The notes under the pieces were generated by a model, which saw only the letters and a program-made list of their open reading frames with translations, made no database searches and had not been told where the DNA came from. From UHGV virus genome UHGV-0163616: a stretch of 35,419 nucleotides of DNA. One strand, written 5' to 3'. This stretch comes from a virus. Made by a program: the position numbers and the translations under genes. Position 1 is the first letter of the stretch. Each line of letters starts with the position of its first letter. This document shows positions 2,550-29,588 of the stretch, piece by piece.

Positions 2550-2713
2550 TTAATTTGCTCCAGACGTAGCAATGCCGAACAAGATGCAACTTGCCCTGCA
2601 TTGCACTAATGTCAGTTATGATTTGTTAATTATGAGATGAGTCTATGCAAAGAGATCTGTTGAATATTGCGCTCTATATATTTGGTTTTTGCACGTTCCT
2701 GGTGTTTGCGAAG

Positions 2714-4711
2714 CTATTCTGACAACGCATCAGACTTAGCCCCCTGCGTCAGAGCGTTAATTGCCTTTTGTGCCTGCTGCATTGCTTTCTCAAAGGCTGT
2801 TGATCCGCGTGGGGTATTTGCCATTCGGAGCATTGCATTTCTGAATGGTTCGCTCTCATAGGCGCGAGTAAGAAGTCCGTAGCTTACTGCTGCGCCAGTT
2901 GTCGCCGGGTTCATTGCCGTCCCATACCCGATAATGAACGGGATGGTTTGCTGCCCTGTTGGTGTTGTTACTGCCGCTTTTGCTGCCTGCTGAGTGGACT
3001 GAAGGTAATTTTTCAATCCTTTCAGATAAGCAGCGTCCTGCCCCTTAAATGTGATGCCAGTCTGGCTTTGCAGGATGTTAAGCTGTCGAAGGAACTGGTC
3101 AGGGGATCCACCTGATTTCTCCATCGCCTTTCCAATGATGCCATTGCGCATTTGCGCCCTGCCAACACGACCAACTGAGTTATACAGTGTCTTAATTTCA
3201 GATTTGTTCTTGCTGAATAGCATGTTATTGACAACTTCCGGCGTCAGATCGCCTTTCATGAGAACATTCTTCAGCCTGGTATTCTTTAGTTTCGCCGCTT
3301 CGTCAGCGTAGACGGCATTGGCCTGCTGATATTTACGGAGAGTATCGTTGCCAAGATTCTGACCAATGGCACCATTGATATCGTCGGTCATCGCCTTGTA
3401 AACGCGCTGAATGGCGGCATCGGAACGGTTTGGTAACACTGGTCGCTCACCCTTCACGTCCATTCTGAACTGGCTGCGCAGATCGCTTAATTGCTTCAAA
3501 TCCAGATTGACCGGACCATCAGGACCAGCATTGCGAACAAGCTCATCACGATATGACTGAAGTTTTGAAATCGTCTCGTTATCAGCGACCTTACCAAGCT
3601 TCTGCAGGTTAGATATCTCAGTATCAATCTGCTGAATTGCTCGTGCAGGTTGAATGTTGACTCCTGCCATTGCATTCTGAATTTGCTCAAGACGGTTCCC
3701 TGCGGCACGCCGAATTCCTGATGTTTTCGCTTTAAGGCTGTCAATAACAACTGCCGGATCGTACTCGCCGAATTTATCAGCAAATCTCTGCACCAACTGA
3801 CTTCTCGCTTCCTGTTGCGTTGCTCTCATTCCGCTTGTGCCAGCCAGGGGGATATTTTCTGCTGTAGTCTGCGCCATTTTCCCGACGCGGGAAGTAGGCT
3901 GTAACAGGTCTGTGGTATGCAGAGGAACTCCTTCACGCTCTGCAAACCTGATAGCCTGTTGAGCTTCTGGTGCTATCGCACCACGAACGCCACGATAAGC
4001 AGCGCCTAATCCACGTCCGGCAGCGTTAATAGCGCCGCCAGCCAGAACGCCAACGCCTAAATCGGTAGCGAGTGCTTCCGCATCATCTTTCGCACTATTT
4101 GCAGCAAGTGACCCGACTGCGTTTTCAGCGAGAAGGCGAGTTGCACCCTGAGCGATTCTACCAGCGAGTGTTGGTGCCTGTGTTGCCGCTCTCTCAATGC
4201 CAGCAGGAGTGAGGTAAGGCAATGCTTCAGCAAATACCCTTCCCTCTGTCGTTTGTGGAGTCAGCGCACCTTGCTGAAGGCCAAAGTCCTGCTCTAATCC
4301 CTGCGTTGTTACTCGTGGTGCTGGTTGATATGTACCATCGCCAATACCGAGTTTACCGCCAGCCCAAGCCGCCGCGCTTGTTACAGCATCGGCAACTGAT
4401 GCAGGTATGTTTGCCACGTTCACGCCAGCCTGCACCAGTCCGCGACCAGTCTCTTTTACTGCTTCACCAAGATCAGACATAAATCCACTTTGCTGTGGTT
4501 GTTGCTGTGCTACTGGTTGTTGTGTCTCCACTGGCTGCACAGATGGCAATGGATAGGCAGCATAGAAAGCTTGCTTAGCCTGCTCTGCATTTTCTCCGGC
4601 TTGCGGGGCCACGACTTCATTGAAGTATTGCTCCTGAGCCTGCGCTTTTTGTTCTGGTGCTAACGCCTGATACTGTGGAGAGGCGATAACATCTTTCCAT
4701 GCTTTAGCCAT
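2714..4711 (-). CDS. Ejection (injection) protein, P22 gp16-like
   Basis: 665 aa, Q/A-rich low-complexity N-terminal region; position and order (gp7-gp20-gp16 then tailspike) as in P22-like phages. Confidence 0.75.
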   Translation of the reverse strand: MAKAWKDVIASPQYQALAPEQKAQAQEQYFNEVVAPQAGENAEQAKQAFYAAYPLPSVQPVETQQPVAQQQPQQSGFMSDLGEAVKETGRGLVQAGVNVANIPASVADAVTSAAAWAGGKLGIGDGTYQPAPRVTTQGLEQDFGLQQGALTPQTTEGRVFAEALPYLTPAGIERAATQAPTLAGRIAQGATRLLAENAVGSLAANSAKDDAEALATDLGVGVLAGGAINAAGRGLGAAYRGVRGAIAPEAQQAIRFAEREGVPLHTTDLLQPTSRVGKMAQTTAENIPLAGTSGMRATQQEARSQLVQRFADKFGEYDPAVVIDSLKAKTSGIRRAAGNRLEQIQNAMAGVNIQPARAIQQIDTEISNLQKLGKVADNETISKLQSYRDELVRNAGPDGPVNLDLKQLSDLRSQFRMDVKGERPVLPNRSDAAIQRVYKAMTDDINGAIGQNLGNDTLRKYQQANAVYADEAAKLKNTRLKNVLMKGDLTPEVVNNMLFSKNKSEIKTLYNSVGRVGRAQMRNGIIGKAMEKSGGSPDQFLRQLNILQSQTGITFKGQDAAYLKGLKNYLQSTQQAAKAAVTTPTGQQTIPFIIGYGTAMNPATTGAAVSYGLLTRAYESEPFRNAMLRMANTPRGSTAFEKAMQQAQKAINALTQGAKSDALSE

Positions 4712-18844: not shown

Positions 18845-19317
18845 ACCTCAATCTCTCTGACCGTTCCGCCTGCTTCTTTGAATTTTGCAATCAGGCTGTC
18901 AGCCTTATGCTCGAACTGACCATAACCAGCCCCCGGAAGTGAAGCCCAGATATTGCTGCAACGGTCGATAGCCTGACGAATATCACCGCGATCAATCATC
19001 GGTAAAGCGCCACGCTCCTTAATCTGCTGCAATGCAACAGCATCCTGGCTTTTAGGAGAGAAGTCTTTCAGGCCAAGCTGCTTACGATAGGCATCCCACC
19101 AACGGGAAAGAAGCTGGTAACGTCCGGCGGCTGTTGATTTGAGTTTTGGGTTTAGCGTGACAAGTTTGCGAGGGTGATCGGAGTAATCAGTGAATAGCTC
19201 TCCGCCAACAATGACGTCATAACCATGATTTCTGGTTTTCTGCCGTCCGTTATCAGTTCCCTCCGACCACGCCAGCATATCGAGGAACGCCTTACGTTGA
19301 TTATTGATTTCCACCAT
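18841..19317 (-). CDS. R: Endolysin (lytic transglycosylase), lambda R
   Basis: 158 aa; matches remembered lambda R essentially end to end ([35 protein letters not shown]...). Confidence 0.95.
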
Positions 19318-19624
19318 CTTCTACTCCGGCTTTTTTAGCAGCGAAGCGTTTGATAAGCGAACCAATCGAGTCAGTACCGATGTAGCCGATGAACACGCTA
19401 GTTATATAAGCGAGATTGCTACTTAGTCCGGCGAAGTCGAGAAGGTCACGAATGAACCAGGCGATAATGGCGCACATCGTTGCGTCGATTACTGTTTTTG
19501 TAAACGCACCGCCATTATATCTGCCGCGAAGGTACGCCATTGCAAACGCAAGGATTGCCCCGATGCCTTGTTCCTTTGCCGCGAGAATGGCGGCTAACAG
19601 GTCATGTTTTTCTGGCATCTTCAT
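19301..19624 (-). CDS. S: Holin/antiholin, lambda S (dual-start MKM)
   Basis: 107 aa; matches remembered lambda S107 essentially end to end, including the Met-Lys-Met dual start; DNA upstream matches lambda S leader. Confidence 0.95.
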
Positions 19625-22704: not shown

Positions 22705-22877
22705 TTCCTCGCACGATGTCTTAGCCACCGGATATCCCACAGGTGAGCCGTGTAGTTGAAGGTTTTTACGTCAGATTCTTTTGGGATTGGCTTGCGTTTA
22801 TTTCTGGATCGTTTCGTTGGAAGGTATTTGCAGTTTTCGCAGATGATGTCGGTGATACTTCGTCGCTGTCGTCTCAT
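22701..22877 (-). CDS. ninE: NinE
   Basis: 58 aa from internal ATG ([40 protein letters not shown]...), matches remembered lambda NinE; ATGA overlap with ninB stop. Confidence 0.85.
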
Positions 22878-23284
22878 TCGTACCTCCTGTCGGTAAATCT
22901 GACACCCTGACCAATAGCCCAAGCTGTTGTGTACTCGATCAGACTTGCCATACGCTTCACGCTCATCTGCGCGCTGCTTTCGCGAATGTTGACGTATTCG
23001 CCTTCAAGGCCGGGCAAAACATCAGCTTCCTGTTTTGTTGCCACTGCATGACCGCTGATCAACAAAACCTTCCATTGTTCTGGTTTTAACCATTTGCCGC
23101 ACCATTGAACCTGACGAGCGATATCCGCCAGCATCGCGTGAAATTTTGCGTTCTGGTCAAGATTTCGCTTGTAGTCAGTAATGCGGATGGTGACTGGCTT
23201 GTCTTTATCGAGAGGAGTTGCGAGGATGGCGTTGATTGCGGCTTGCTGTTGTTGCTTAGTTCGGAGGAATATTGTTTGCTTCAC
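22874..23284 (-). CDS. ninB: NinB recombination protein
   Basis: 136 aa; same architecture and several shared motifs with lambda NinB (LDQN.K, QV.W.G.WL); first of the nin cluster. Confidence 0.75.
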
Positions 23285-23295
23285 TGAACACTCCT

Positions 23296-23487
23296 TTATT
23301 TTTTATGCCTGTAACCCCATTCTTCCAGCAACCTTGCGGCGTACCACCCAAGAAACAAAGGAAAGAACATTACAATGAGATATTCCCCGCCACGGTCAAT
23401 GTTCGAAATTGACCAGATTACGATGTAACCAGTGCAGGACAGGAATATTACAAACCCCAAAAAGCTACTTCGTCGACTCATGCTCAC
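23296..23487 (-). CDS. Small hydrophobic hypothetical protein
   Basis: 63 aa with two hydrophobic stretches; start overlaps upstream stop. Confidence 0.45.
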   Translation of the reverse strand: MSMSRRSSFLGFVIFLSCTGYIVIWSISNIDRGGEYLIVMFFPLFLGWYAARLLEEWGYRHKK

Positions 23488-23798
23488 TCCTTCACTTTGA
23501 TTCCAGCGGCGCGGATAGCCTCTACATCGCTTTCGTATTGCGATTCTGCACCTGAGTCATAGCCAATGTGATAATCACCGGGAAGTGGGTCTTTCTTTGG
23601 CTTTTGCAGCTCAATCTCGATAGCTGCTCGCGATGCCTGCCACGTTTGCCAGTGGCCTTGAACATCGACCATCACGTATTGACCACCAATATTACCGCTG
23701 CCAATTTCATGGTGATTTTCAGGGTAACGGATAAGGTCTGAAGATTCGCCCCCACGTCGCAACCAGCTTTCTTCAAACTGCTTTCTTGATTCGTCCAT
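23484..23798 (-). CDS. Hypothetical protein
   Basis: 104 aa acidic protein; no recognised motif; in the variable slot between replication genes and nin cluster where lambda has ren. Confidence 0.5.
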   Translation of the reverse strand: MDESRKQFEESWLRRGGESSDLIRYPENHHEIGSGNIGGQYVMVDVQGHWQTWQASRAAIEIELQKPKKDPLPGDYHIGYDSGAESQYESDVEAIRAAGIKVKE

Positions 23799-23815
23799 CG
23801 GTACTTACCCTCAGT

Positions 23816-24022
23816 TCAACTCACAAAACGCCACGCCATTTTTGCTACAGCGACAGGCATAACACCGATAATCACCCACAGGAAAATGCTACCGAAAAGC
23901 ACACCCACCAGGTATTTACCTTCGCCTACCAACCGGACAAAACAGCCAGCAACCACAATGAACGTCGCCACCATCCACAGAGCACCGAGAAGCCTCAATG
24001 CAGAGAAAATCAACTCAACCAC
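23816..24022 (-). CDS. Small two-helix membrane protein (GTG start)
   Basis: 68 aa, two strongly hydrophobic segments; GTG start preceded by GGGGGAGAG Shine-Dalgarno. Confidence 0.45.
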   Translation of the reverse strand: MVELIFSALRLLGALWMVATFIVVAGCFVRLVGEGKYLVGVLFGSIFLWVIIGVMPVAVAKMAWRFVS

Positions 24023-24039
24023 GATTTACTCTCCCCCAA

Positions 24040-24068
24040 ATAAAAAGGCCTGCGATTACCAGCAGGCC
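24040..24068 (-). terminator. Intrinsic terminator after helicase gene (tR2-like; GGCCUGC-UGGUAAUC-GCAGGCC then UUUUUAUUU)
   Basis: Perfect 7-bp stem and U-tract on minus strand about 30 nt after the helicase stop; read from sequence. Confidence 0.6.
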
Positions 24069-24097
24069 TGTTATTAGCTCAGTGATGTAGATGGTCA

Positions 24098-25534
24098 TCA
24101 GAATCCTCCTTTCTTCTTGGACTGCGGTTCCTCACGTTCACGACGGCGCATTTCAGCAGACTGTTGGTCTGTGTCATAAATAGCGCCATTTGCCTGAATG
24201 CAATACACCGTGCCGGTATTGCCATGACGATTGAGGCGAAGGATTAGTTCGGTTTCACCAGGAGGAACGCTGTCATCAAAAGCACCTTCACGATGGATCC
24301 CGACCCAATAATCGCAATCCTGTTCAATCTGCCCTGTATCTCGCGAGTCACTTGGTAATGGGCGTTTATTGGTTCGGCTTTCCAATGCGCGGTTAAGCTG
24401 TGTCAGAAGCACAACAACGCAATCAAGCTCTTTGGCAAGGTTCTTCAGTCCTTTGGTGATCATGCCGTAAGCAAGGTCGTTGCGATCGGCCTTCTCAGCG
24501 GTCATTAGTGTCAGGTAATCGACCAGAATCATGCCAACACATCCTTTTTCTCGCTTGATTCGACGGCTTTCGCTGACGATTTGAGCCAGAGATAATCCCG
24601 GCGTGTCGTCGATGTAAAGCAGGTCGATTTCACTCAAGCGATTGGCTGTTTCGATCGCCCTGTTGAAGTCACCATCGTAATCACCCTGATAGCCGTCATC
24701 GGCGTCATTTGTCGCAGGAAGGTAAAAAATATTCGGGTTAACACCAGACTTCTGCCCTACCAGTTTTTCCAGTATCTGGTCACCTGGCATTTCAAGGCTG
24801 AACATCAGAGCGGGCTTTTTCTCATGCACTGCGCAGTTGATTGCCATCTGGCTGTATAGCGTCGTTTTCCCCATCTTAGGGCGAGCGCCAATGACAAACA
24901 GAGAGCCTTTCACCAGACCTTTCGGTGACAGCATCCTGTCCAGCGATGGGATCCCTGTGCTCATTCCTCGTTGTTCTCCTGACGGGTCAAATCGCTTCTC
25001 AAGGTCGCTAACCCAGTCTTCCATGACCTCACCAAATGAGCGAAGGCCGCGACGCGATCCGGTTTTTGCATGGTCTGTCAGTTGCGTGAAAATCGCCTGA
25101 ATAGCTTCGTACTTCTGCGTTGCAGTCATTCCATTGCGTGAATAGAGCAATTCCGTCGCTTCAGTCATGCGGTTGATGGCGTAGCGTTCCATTGCGGTTT
25201 CACGAACCTGCATTGCATAGGCAACGATGTTTGCTGCGCTTGGCGTGTTCTTTGCGATCTCAGCGATATAAGCAAAACCGCCAACAGACGCCGTTAACGA
25301 TTTACGCTCCAGTTCATCGAAAAGCGTCAGGCCATCTACTGGCTTTTGCTCCCGGTGCATTCTGGTTATTTCTTCGAAAATGATTTTGTGTGGTCGGCTG
25401 TAAAATGAATCGGGCTTCAGCATCGCCAGAACTTTCTGGACGCGCTCACTGCTGTCATCATCCAGAAGCAATCCACCAATCACCGCCTGCTCTGCCTCGA
25501 TGCTATGGGGCGGTGCATAAAAATTATCGGTCAT
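24098..25534 (-). CDS. Replicative DNA helicase, DnaB family (P22 gene 12-like)
   Basis: Walker A GARPKMGKTT, Walker B LILVDYL, DnaB N-terminal IEAEQAVIGGLLLD; start placed at ATG 25534 (ORF-track start 25549 is a GTG). Confidence 0.9.
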   Translation of the reverse strand: MTDNFYAPPHSIEAEQAVIGGLLLDDDSSERVQKVLAMLKPDSFYSRPHKIIFEEITRMHREQKPVDGLTLFDELERKSLTASVGGFAYIAEIAKNTPSAANIVAYAMQVRETAMERYAINRMTEATELLYSRNGMTATQKYEAIQAIFTQLTDHAKTGSRRGLRSFGEVMEDWVSDLEKRFDPSGEQRGMSTGIPSLDRMLSPKGLVKGSLFVIGARPKMGKTTLYSQMAINCAVHEKKPALMFSLEMPGDQILEKLVGQKSGVNPNIFYLPATNDADDGYQGDYDGDFNRAIETANRLSEIDLLYIDDTPGLSLAQIVSESRRIKREKGCVGMILVDYLTLMTAEKADRNDLAYGMITKGLKNLAKELDCVVVLLTQLNRALESRTNKRPLPSDSRDTGQIEQDCDYWVGIHREGAFDDSVPPGETELILRLNRHGNTGTVYCIQANGAIYDTDQQSAEMRRREREEPQSKKKGGF

Positions 25535-26414
25535 CGTGTTCACCCTCACGAACTTTCAGGTAGGTATTGTCGTTAAGCAGGAAATCAAATCCCTTTTTGT
25601 GCCAGACGGTTCCGCGTTGATGGTTTGGACGCTCTTCGAACATCCATCGGCAATTTTCGCCTACGTAGCTCAAATAATTTCTCCAGTCCTGCATCGTGAA
25701 CCCATGCCCGTCAAGCTGGCGGGTTATCACTCCGGCTTTGCGCCAGAACGTTCGGATCTGGTTTTTACGCTTGTCATTCAGTGCGCGGATTCTTGGCGCT
25801 TCAGGAAGGATTTCGTGGTAAGCATCGACAACATCCTGACAGCTAACGGAAGGTTTTTTCTTGTCAGACTTTTTGTCTGCTGTGGCACTCTCTAATACGT
25901 CAGTATTAGAGATATTATTTATATTATTGTTTATGGACAACCGTTGGACAACCGTTGGACAATCTCCGCTGAGAGCCGCGCCATTACTGGTGTTTGCGTT
26001 GGACAACCGTTGGACAATCGTTGGACAATTTTTTGCTTGAAAATCGTCATATTTAACGATTGTAAACAGGCTAAATTTCTTCCCCATCGAGCAAATATTA
26101 AGCATCCCTTTCGACTCAAAAGTCCGTAATAAGCTCCGAACTTTGTTGTCGGGGATGAATGTTTCTCTGACCAGCGACGGGCGTCCAGTTATCATCTGAC
26201 CGCGATCAACAGTTATCGGACCGATATCCGTATTGACGACAGTAGATTCGTGATTAGCCTTGAGGATTAAGTGAAGCCAAAGATGTACTGCCTGAGAGTC
26301 CTTATAGAGCCTGCTGTCCATAAACTGGCGGTGTATAGAGACATACCCCATACTGGATGCCTCCTGATGTTGTACAGGGTTATGCCTGTAATCAGCTAAC
26401 TTAACGACTCCCAT
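25524..26414 (-). CDS. Replication initiator (O-like; P22 gene 18-like) carrying the origin iterons
   Basis: 296 aa; immediately upstream of the helicase; contains two clusters of direct DNA repeats plus an AT-rich tract in its middle, as in ori-lambda within O. Confidence 0.75.
   Translation of the reverse strand: MGVVKLADYRHNPVQHQEASSMGYVSIHRQFMDSRLYKDSQAVHLWLHLILKANHESTVVNTDIGPITVDRGQMITGRPSLVRETFIPDNKVRSLLRTFESKGMLNICSMGKKFSLFTIVKYDDFQAKNCPTIVQRLSNANTSNGAALSGDCPTVVQRLSINNNINNISNTDVLESATADKKSDKKKPSVSCQDVVDAYHEILPEAPRIRALNDKRKNQIRTFWRKAGVITRQLDGHGFTMQDWRNYLSYVGENCRWMFEERPNHQRGTVWHKKGFDFLLNDNTYLKVREGEHDDR
25933..26070. repeat. Phage replication origin: 2 x 3 tandem 11-bp iterons (TTGGACAAYYK) separated by 33 bp, followed by an AT-rich tract
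   Basis: Iterons at 25933-25965 and 25999-26031 then TTTTTTGCTTGAAAATCGTCATATTTAACGATTG; read directly from sequence. Confidence 0.75.
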
Positions 26415-27284: not shown

Positions 27285-28001
27285 ATGGAAAATAAAAAAT
27301 CACTGACGACAGAACAGCTGGAAGACGCTAAGCGGCTTAAGGCTTTGTATGAGTCAAAAAAGAAAGAATTGGGAATAACCCAATACTCAATCGCTGATGA
27401 ACTGGGTATCACCCAAGGAGCGGTAGGGCATTATCTTAATGGCAGAAATGCGCTAAACGTTGAGGTTGCATCTGGTTTTGCACGATTGTTGCAAGTCTCA
27501 ATTGCTGATTTTAGCCAGTCAATTGCTGCCAAGGTTGCAGAACAGGCAGAAAGCCTTAAGAGCGATGCCAACGTAAGGTATGCAGGGGAATACAGAGCAG
27601 GAAAGAGGTATCCGGTGTTAAGCAGTATCCAGGCTGGCTCGTGGTGTGAAGCATGCGAACCATACACCATTAAAGACATAGATGTTTGGCTTGAGTCTGA
27701 CGCGCATATTCAAGGTAATGCGTTCTGGCTTAAAGTGGAAGGTGATTCAATGACGGCACCGGTTGGGTTAAGCATTCCAGAGGGAACATTCGTTCTTTTC
27801 GATACCGGAAGGGAGGCGATCAACGGCAGCTTGGTCATAGCAAAACTTTCTGACTCTAACGAAGCAACATTCAAGAAGCTGATAATCGACGGCGGAAATA
27901 AATACCTCAAGGGACTTAATCCTGCATGGCCTCTCGTGCCAATCAATGGAAACTGCAAGATTATAGGCGTTGCAATTGAGACAAAACTAAGGCTGGTTTG
28001 A
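27285..28001 (+). CDS. cI: CI repressor (HTH plus S24 LexA-like autocleavage domain)
   Basis: 238 aa; N-terminus resembles lambda CI; C-terminal domain (KRYPVLSSIQAGSWCEACEPYTIKDIDVWL...FWLKVEGDSMTAP...GNCKIIGVAIE) resembles 434 cI; Ala-Gly cleavage site and Ser/Lys dyad context present. Confidence 0.9.
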   Translation: MENKKSLTTEQLEDAKRLKALYESKKKELGITQYSIADELGITQGAVGHYLNGRNALNVEVASGFARLLQVSIADFSQSIAAKVAEQAESLKSDANVRYAGEYRAGKRYPVLSSIQAGSWCEACEPYTIKDIDVWLESDAHIQGNAFWLKVEGDSMTAPVGLSIPEGTFVLFDTGREAINGSLVIAKLSDSNEATFKKLIIDGGNKYLKGLNPAWPLVPINGNCKIIGVAIETKLRLV

Positions 28002-28387
28002 TCACGCAAGGGGCGATTATGGTTGGAACCGCTATAGCAAGCTTTTTGGGGATGTTGGCAATCTCAACAATTTACGGCTTAGCGCATGCTTTTATTGCGA
28101 AATCTCTATCAGAAAAAATAAGCCAGGCTTGGGCGCATAGATCAGCTCGTTTCATGATTCTGGTGATCATGGCAATACAAGGGATATCTGCATTTATCCT
28201 CTATGGATCAAGCTTATACCTATTGTATCAAGGCGCGACATTTACGCCTTACACCAGTGATTACGGAACTCTATACGATGGTAGTGAAGACATCTCTATG
28301 GCTTGGATCATCTTTGGTTTATCTATGGCCGTGTCTGTTGTAGCAGACATCATTAAGGTAATTCTCGTCTTAACCTTCGCTGACTAA
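27998..28387 (+). CDS. Small polytopic membrane protein translationally coupled to cI (occupies the rexAB slot between cI and OL)
   Basis: 129 aa with about 4 hydrophobic helices; ATG overlaps the cI stop (ATGA); no recognisable family from sequence alone. Confidence 0.6.
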   Translation: MITQGAIMVGTAIASFLGMLAISTIYGLAHAFIAKSLSEKISQAWAHRSARFMILVIMAIQGISAFILYGSSLYLLYQGATFTPYTSDYGTLYDGSEDISMAWIIFGLSMAVSVVADIIKVILVLTFAD

Positions 28388-28754: not shown

Positions 28755-29027
28755 ATGACAGTAGTCATTACATATCTGGCTGACGATAACGCCAGAAATC
28801 GCCGCAGAGCACGCAGACAGGCTCAACGTGAGCAGGCAATGCAAGAACAGCGACTGGCGCGAAAAATTGCGCTAAAGCTCTCTGGTTGCGTCAGAGCAGA
28901 CAAAGCAGCTTCACTCGGAAGCCTTCGCTGCAAGAAGGTAGATGAATGCAGTGGAAGTATTTGCCTGCCAAACGTAGCTCTTTACGCGGCAGGCTACCGG
29001 AAATCAAAACAACTGACAGCGAGGTGA
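28755..29027 (+). CDS. N: N-type transcription antiterminator (P22 gp24-like) with arginine-rich motif
   Basis: 90 aa; ARM NARNRRRARRQAQREQ; C-terminus PNVALYAAGYRKSKQLTAR resembles the P22 gene 24 C-terminus; GGAGG Shine-Dalgarno; downstream of nutL. Confidence 0.8.
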   Translation: MTVVITYLADDNARNRRRARRQAQREQAMQEQRLARKIALKLSGCVRADKAASLGSLRCKKVDECSGSICLPNVALYAAGYRKSKQLTAR

Positions 29028-29048: not shown

Positions 29049-29588
29049 CTAAATTAGCTCATCAGCTTTACCAGCAAAGCGCATATAACACTCATGGAAC
29101 CAGACGTCAGGTATAACAAATTTCTCTTTACCTGACGCGCTGTAAGTCACACCTGAGCGATGGAGAAGACCTTTTCTCATAAGAGATAAAGCGACCGGAT
29201 CGCCGTGCTTAAGTACGATTTTGTTATTTGCCATAACAGCAAATGCTAAAACCTCTTTTTCCTGAATACTCAGAGAATTGAACAGGCGCTCAGTCTCCAC
29301 AATTACTTTAGCCTCATCTCTCTTACTGAGATATTTTTTATATCTGTCTGAAGATGCCAGAAATATAAACTCCATCACCCTGTTCAGAACATAACTGATA
29401 CACAAAAGCATTGCGTAATACATCCAGTGATCTGGAAGTATTTCGGGGTTCCTTATATCTACCCACTCTTTAATTGATGCTGGGGTGATTATTATCAAGG
29501 CAATTAAAATAATAAGCATATGAATTAACTGTTGTAGCGTAAGACCACGCAGGAAGAAACGTAATAGTTCCTGCCACCAGTTACTCAT
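29049..29588 (-). CDS. Membrane-anchored protein, candidate superinfection-exclusion/abortive-infection protein (SieB-like by size, topology and position)
   Basis: 179 aa; two N-terminal hydrophobic helices then a soluble domain; convergent with N, so expressible in the lysogen independently of PL; AT-rich. Family assignment not verified. Confidence 0.55.
   Translation of the reverse strand: MSNWWQELLRFFLRGLTLQQLIHMLIILIALIIITPASIKEWVDIRNPEILPDHWMYYAMLLCISYVLNRVMEFIFLASSDRYKKYLSKRDEAKVIVETERLFNSLSIQEKEVLAFAVMANNKIVLKHGDPVALSLMRKGLLHRSGVTYSASGKEKFVIPDVWFHECYMRFAGKADELI

Follow-up and report, generated by a model that had tools for sequence, protein, structure and literature searches.

The three small open reading frames located between the DnaB-type replicative helicase gene and ninB of virus genome UHGV-0163616 (35,419 nucleotides, hereafter referred to as the window) are probably independent, non-homologous accessory cassettes of the lambdoid nin gene pool. 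They occupy the interval between the tR2 terminator, with its surrounding ninA gene, and ninB, and their expression is likely to depend on antitermination. This assessment covers the classification of the genes and the logic of their expression, not any specific activity; assigning them a particular function, for example superinfection exclusion or counter-defence, would be doubtful at best.

The trio (ORF68, ORF104 and ORF63) is encoded on the minus strand of an E. coli prophage of the P22/lambda type, as part of its early-right (pR) operon. The nearest records come from E. coli prophages and from phiv205-1, a P22-like phage (96-97% identity). Based on Pfam and PHROGs assignments, the minus-strand gene order is Cro, CII, an O-like initiator, the DnaB helicase, the ORF trio, NinB, NinE, NinG, a Ser/Thr phosphatase, the Q antiterminator and a holin (Table 1). 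The CI-like repressor gene lies on the strand opposite to the Cro-CII-helicase operon, and genes for an N-like antiterminator and a SieB-like protein are found on the other side of the repressor from this operon. The trio is therefore flanked by the helicase gene upstream and by ninB downstream, and shares with the nin region a location downstream of tR2, in the part of the pR operon that extends from the replication genes to Q. No RNA families of the Rfam database were identified anywhere in the window.

Table 1. Coordinates of the tR2-ninB slot, its flanking genes and selected control and lysis genes in the window.
Feature	Position	Strand	Evidence and remarks
DnaB-type replicative helicase	24098-25549	-	Pfam DnaB_C E=3e-60, DnaB E=6e-32; last replication gene of the pR operon
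ninA (27 aa, hydrophobic; MTIYITELITGLLVIAGLFIWGRVNRG)	24015-24098	-	Translation; phrog_5907 E=1.3e-18; contains tR2
tR2 intrinsic terminator	24036-24069	-	Terminator scan; comparison with the lambda ren-ninB spacer and 128 related loci
Shine-Dalgarno sequence GGGGGAGAG	24029-24037	-	Sequence; belongs to ninB in lambda and to ORF68 here
ORF68 (68 aa, GTG start)	23816-24022	-	phrog_1165
ORF104 (104 aa, ATG start)	23484-23798	-	phrog_343
ORF63, probable form (61 aa, from the ATG at 23481)	23296-23481	-	
ORF63, alternative form (63 aa, from a GTG)	23296-23487	-	
ninB	22874-23284	-	Pfam NinB E=1e-55
N-like antiterminator	28755-29027	+	phrog_271
SieB-type superinfection-exclusion gene	29049-29588	-	phrog_1301 E=3.6e-94; adjoins the N-like antiterminator gene
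Hydrophobic ORF (129 aa)	27998-28387	+	phrog_6534
Lambda-S family holin	19301-19624		Lysis cassette approximately 3.7 kb downstream of the ORF trio

All three frames of a preliminary description of this DNA were recovered at exactly the same positions on the minus strand, with GTG, ATG and GTG starts, respectively. For ORF63, an internal ATG at 23481 is the most likely start, yielding 61 aa. An AAGGAG Shine-Dalgarno sequence is located 5 nt upstream of this ATG, which is the start in all 16 ORF63 DNA variants and all database proteins, and for these reasons the shorter form is preferred. The tight packing described previously is confirmed by the gaps of 17, 2 and 11 nt that separate ORF68 from ORF104, ORF104 from ORF63 and ORF63 from ninB when the ATG start is used; the overlapping starts that had also been described disappear within the trio, and the sole real overlap is that between the ninA stop and the ORF68 start (GTGGTTGA). 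Closely coupled stop and start signals, another feature shared with the nin region, are found at the helicase/ninA (TGATG), ninA/ORF68 (GTGGTTGA) and ORF104/ORF63 (TGAGCATG) junctions.

The terminator preceding the trio consists of an 8-bp G+C-rich stem, an 8-nt loop and the tail TTTTATTT. It had been described as tR2-like, which was correct as to its nature and too cautious as to its identity, because the hairpin (AGGCCTGCTGGTAATCGCAGGCCT) and the T-run are identical to those of lambda tR2. The GGGGGAGAG sequence that follows is also common to both phages, and the 75 nt that separate the helicase stop from the start of ORF68 are almost the same as those between ren and ninB in lambda. In lambda, this Shine-Dalgarno sequence leads directly to the ATG of ninB, whereas in the window it leads to the GTG of ORF68. 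The same hairpin is annotated as 'terminator tR2' in HK620, and the surrounding 27-codon ORF, which was absent from the ORF list of the preliminary description, carries a ninA annotation in both HK620 and HK630. The ninA start overlaps the helicase stop, and its own stop overlaps the GTG of ORF68.

In eight related loci the 5' half of ninA differs, yet the tR2 hairpin, the T-run and the Shine-Dalgarno sequence are kept, which suggests that the conserved element is the terminator and not the NinA peptide. In HK022-type loci (L012, L031, L077), the change in ninA lies approximately 85 nt upstream of ORF68 and an HNH-AP2 homing-endonuclease gene (HK022_57) is located directly upstream of ORF68. 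Translation near tR2 represses termination, as reported in a study that also mentions the NinA start site (PMC4824070). Hence, ribosomes translating ninA, which spans the whole tR2 hairpin, could modulate tR2 read-through. A scan for the sigma-70 consensus between 22800 and 24300 returned no promoter-like sites, compared with 1.9 expected by chance, and tR2 was the only terminator-like site in this interval, with none following the trio. As no promoter of its own was found, the trio is probably expressed only lytically, by antitermination.

The division of the trio into two hydrophobic proteins and one acidic protein, as described previously, was reproduced, with hydrophobic segments defined as stretches of 19 residues with a Kyte-Doolittle hydropathy of at least 1.6. 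ORF68 (GRAVY 1.63, pI 9.8) contains two such segments separated by the loop LVGEGK, and it matches the phrog_1165 HMM over its full length (E=4.6e-34, residues 1-68 on profile positions 1-68). The protein is widespread, with 205 protein clusters, nearly all of approximately 68 aa, from Escherichia, Shigella and Salmonella. Using tblastn, it was identified in 107 of 50,697 phage records, including HK022, HK75, HK630, mEp235 and many Stx phages, and versions with 42-56% identity are present in HK620 and Salmonella P22-like phages. One of these is an unannotated homologue in HK620 (L156, AF335538, positions 1201-1398), which is 53% identical and located between ninA and ninB. An 851-nt query containing ORF68 was matched in approximately 2000 of 5426 complete E. 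coli genomes. A profile search of the PDB with ORF68 returned no matches, and a distant paralogous relationship between ORF68 and ORF63 was rejected (hhalign probability 0.5%).

ORF104 is a soluble protein with a pI of 5.04 that lacks hydrophobic segments by the same criterion and matches phrog_343 (E=1.7e-31). The search for homologues yielded 385 proteins; all of the 120 listed carry a precomputed assignment to Pfam PF26207, so that the tie of ORF104 to this family is indirect and runs via homologues of up to 97% identity. Some homologues are named 'phiTE_015 family protein' by PGAP. The family is mosaic within the gene, and at least four N-terminal and at least five C-terminal variants are freely combined around three invariant stretches (MDESRKQFEE, W..WQASRAAIE and AIRAAGIKVKE) that form the joints. 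A fixed pairing of the upstream membrane gene with a particular N-terminal variant was rejected, as ORF68 precedes at least three of them. The AlphaFold2 model of ORF104 is mediocre (pLDDT 66), and a Foldseek search with this model returned no PDB structure at E<1 and only uncharacterised phage proteins in BFVD. A profile search of the PDB was likewise without matches. The name 'VOC family protein' that some relatives of ORF104 bear was rejected, as the Glyoxalase_4 score of 22 bits is below the 27-bit cut-off. Relatives such as phiv205-1 (L002/L003, positions 1783-1892) contain approximately 95 additional nucleotides at the ORF68/ORF104 junction, through which the ORF104 homologue can be read as a 138-aa protein whose N-terminus is extended by a Cys-rich stretch (KCQKCNNTG...CDC); no such segment is present at approximately 23798-23816 in the window.

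ORF63 also contains two hydrophobic segments, which are separated by NIDRGGE and followed by a basic C-terminal tail. Its AlphaFold2 model is a helix-turn-helix hairpin (H3-26 and H30-60, pLDDT 71). With a G+C content of 0.44, ORF63 differs from its neighbours (approximately 0.49-0.50), and its distribution is narrow, comprising four protein clusters and 195 of 5426 complete E. coli genomes (approximately 3.6%). A scan of species-representative genomes identified a single ORF63 locus, a 10-kb contig of a 'Bacillota bacterium' MAG (L155, JAEZIN010000021.1). The ORF63 that it encodes matches that of the E. coli prophage with 100% identity, and the contig is probably a mis-binned enterobacterial phage contig. 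ORF63 is an orphan with respect to Pfam and PHROGs, and a profile (HMMER) search of 1.84 billion representative proteins for remote homologues returned only two borderline hydrophobic matches (E approximately 7e-4). Two candidate assignments were rejected: Acyl_transf_3 scored 15 bits against a cut-off of 31 and was attributed to hydrophobic bias, and the label 'Renin receptor-like', borne by a single copy of ORF63, is without family-search support, other copies being termed 'hypothetical protein'. Taken together, ORF68 and ORF104 belong to catalogued families that lack an assigned function, whereas ORF63 is an under-annotated orphan.

The composition of the slot between tR2 and ninB was surveyed in 142 IMG/VR loci and several RefSeq loci. 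The ORF63 locus set and the ORF68 locus set both comprise more than 25 architectures, and each of the three ORFs occurs with or without the others. Four types of replication module precede the slot (lambda P with Ren, two DnaB types and a toprim protein) and two ninB types follow it. Apart from ORF68, ORF63 and one or two genes of the ORF104 family, the occupants include a 90-aa ORF, the HNH-AP2 homing endonuclease encoded by HK022 gene 57, an unrelated 60-aa ORF with two hydrophobic segments, a DUF7301 protein and HK022 gene 60. Examples of the resulting orders are lamP>Ren>ORF68>NinB, heli>ORF68>ORF104>NinB, toprim>DUF7301>ORF63>NinB and heli446>ORF63.

The joints at which cassettes are exchanged coincide with short conserved sequences that bear the ribosome-binding site. 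The sequence AAAGTGAAGGAGTGAGCATG directly precedes ORF63, regardless of whether ORF104 or DUF7301 is located upstream, and GAGGGTAAGTACCGATG, which precedes ORF104 in the window, corresponds to GAGGGGTAAGTACCGATG before the 60-aa hydrophobic ORF in locus L008. In this locus (L008 positions 2700-3080), ORF63 is followed by a 12-nt remnant of the ninB start, comprising remains of the Shine-Dalgarno sequence and the first four codons. The 60-aa ORF downstream of the remnant is unannotated, unrelated to the trio and without a PHROG match. It is in turn followed by a second gene of the ORF104 family, for which PGAP calls a downstream start. Presence or absence among lambdoid phages and mosaic joints at gene boundaries are further characteristics of the nin region, whose genes have been described as nonessential and tightly interlinked, with approximately ten per phage drawn from a pool of approximately 30-50 (PMC8022706, PMC5630979, PMC10695390). 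The trio matches this published picture and is part of an already documented gene pool.

All three ORFs are real coding genes. Conservation across related prophages, which the preliminary description had named as a check, holds for both hydrophobic proteins: 127 of the 128 related loci retain the full 68-codon frame of ORF68, which opens with GTG in each of the 59 DNA variants, and 81 of the 83 ORF63 copies are likewise undamaged, the exceptions being one that is cut by an IS element and one with a changed C-terminus. For both genes, the annotated frame has the lowest pooled pN/pS (ORF68, 0.53 versus 0.77 and 1.00 in the shifted frames; ORF63, 0.39 versus 0.88 and 0.89). Purifying selection on both is far weaker than on ninB (0.08 in frame versus 3.5 and 2.7), which indicates that both may contribute little to fitness or may do so only under certain conditions. 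Furthermore, an ORF63 homologue with 72% amino acid and 75% nucleotide identity is located directly after a different DnaB gene, without ORF68 and ORF104, and retains an intact 61-codon frame and its own AGGAGG Shine-Dalgarno sequence. The two genes differ at 17, 8 and 22 sites in codon positions 1, 2 and 3, respectively, corresponding to 15 synonymous and 17 nonsynonymous codon changes and a dN/dS of approximately 0.19 at a dS of approximately 1.

Such weak selection could also be read as a sign that ORF63, and possibly ORF68, is no functional protein gene and that the frame is kept by chance or by constraint at the DNA or RNA level. Consistent with this reading, RefSeq/PGAP annotates no ORF63 CDS in any of the five loci examined (L001, L003, L008, L009 and L010, in E. 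coli chromosomes), though the ORF is intact in each, and ORF63 lacks both a family and clear remote homologues. However, this reading is most improbable given the diverged copy, which keeps its reading frame and ribosome-binding site in a different context at a low dN/dS, the frame-specific constraint, the near absence of disrupted copies, and mosaic joints that respect both the start and the stop of ORF63. Two further readings accept the trio as genes and place them in other classes. The preliminary description had assumed that the prophage carries these genes instead of ren, in which case they might functionally replace Ren against Rex-type exclusion by resident lambdoid prophages. They share with ren the general neighbourhood between the replication genes and ninB and a delayed-early timing, and RexB-type systems act at the membrane, for which two of the products appear to be destined. 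Nevertheless, lambda ren lies between P and tR2, whereas the trio lies downstream of the same hairpin, where lambda enters ninB directly. Moreover, Ren and the trio are not alternatives to each other, since lamP>Ren>ORF68>NinB, lamP>Ren>ORF68>ORF104>NinB and lamP>Ren>ORF68>ORF104>ORF63>NinB are common orders among the IMG/VR loci, and a BLASTP comparison of Ren with ORF68, ORF104 and ORF63 returned no alignments even at E<=100. Position, co-occurrence and lack of similarity show that the premise of a ren substitute was wrong, and a functional replacement of Ren is very unlikely.

Known exclusion factors occur among the small two-helix membrane proteins that temperate phages encode. This, together with the patchy distribution of the trio and the low G+C content of ORF63, would fit prophage-expressed morons whose products act in the lysogen as small membrane toxins or as factors of superinfection exclusion. 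We consider this unlikely, because morons are flanked by their own promoter and terminator and neither was found for the trio, its only terminator being tR2 upstream, behind which it lies within the repressor-controlled pR operon. In addition, the positions classically expressed in lysogens are already held by the SieB-type gene and by a hydrophobic gene after cI. The latter is the strongly hydrophobic 129-aa ORF listed in Table 1, which begins where the CI-like repressor gene stops, occupies the position of rexA/rexB in lambda and is for this reason a better candidate for a lysogen-expressed membrane factor than the trio. The suggestion that small membrane peptides in such slots can be toxins, exclusion factors or modulators of host physiology also gained no backing from database searches: PADLOC matched none of its families to the three ORFs at E<=1, Pfam and NCBIfam yielded nothing significant, and PHROGs returned only families without an assigned function, none of them, as in Pfam, an exclusion family. 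ORF68 and ORF63 match no holin families in Pfam or PHROGs, and the distance to the lysis cassette is also at odds with a holin or pinholin. A literature search on PF26207/phiTE_015 and on anti-defence roles in the nin region found no functional data on the trio.

As lytically expressed nin-region cassettes, the three genes would lack a promoter of their own and be transcribed from pR. The N-like antiterminator would suppress tR2 and allow RNA polymerase to read into the trio, so that expression would occur during lytic growth or induction only and not in the lysogen. Translation may proceed as a chain from the helicase via ninA, ORF68, ORF104 and ORF63 to ninB. ORF68 and ORF63 are predicted to insert into the inner membrane as helical hairpins, for ORF63 with both ends in the cytoplasm according to the positive-inside rule, and ORF104 would be a cytoplasmic two-module protein. 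Dispensability for plaque formation is known for the nin genes of lambda, P22 and Sf6 (PMC10695390, PMC5630979) and is presumed for the trio by analogy. A lytic-phase membrane role of its products is conceivable, and the trio would most plausibly adjust interactions with the host or with competitors during lytic growth in a conditional, nonessential manner. Candidate activities are envelope conditioning, exclusion of superinfecting DNA and the countering of host defence. A more speculative proposal, to which we attach little weight, is that one or both hairpins, especially ORF63, represent an unrecognised class of lytic-phase inner-membrane effectors with ORF104 as a variable cytoplasmic specificity factor. 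Such an effector might block the DNA entry of superinfecting phages or neutralise a membrane-acting abortive-infection system, and the freely recombining N- and C-terminal modules of ORF104 could provide the specificity.

The main gain of this analysis is a clean-up of the annotation, as the slot represents the tR2-ninB junction of the nin region and not a substitute for ren, and ORF63 is a real small-protein gene that was missed by RefSeq annotation and PHROGs. The slot also offers a handy, naturally modular site for studying small phage membrane proteins in lytic growth. Should one of its genes turn out to act in counter-defence or exclusion, the short list of membrane effectors that temperate phages are known to use in the lytic phase would grow.

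Among known systems, the trio closely resembles the ninA-ninH chain of lambda and P22, which is likewise located between the replication genes and Q in tight, coupled packing and with a patchy mosaic distribution, behind tR2 and read by N-type antitermination. Lambda itself lacks ORF68, ORF104 and ORF63, which are unnamed as nin genes, and the products of ninB, ninG, rusA and the ninI phosphatase gene are not membrane-type hairpins, unlike those of ORF68 and ORF63. Another close counterpart is found in HK022, where gene 58 (HK022_58) is 98.5% identical to ORF68 and gene 59 (HK022_59) is a member of the ORF104 family, both genes following tR2 in the order seen in the window. In contrast to the window, HK022 carries the HNH-AP2 homing-endonuclease gene in place of the 5' half of ninA and gene 60 where the window has ORF63. 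HK620 shares the ORF68 homologue described above in the same slot. Lambda Ren is similarly small, nonessential, delayed-early and adjacent to the replication genes, but is encoded upstream of tR2, is not hydrophobic, has no sequence similarity to the trio and co-occurs rather than alternates with it. Phage morons such as HK97 gp15 and lambda bor/lom are also small accessory genes of patchy distribution that often encode membrane proteins; they differ in having their own promoter and terminator, signals not found at the trio, and in being expressed from the prophage.
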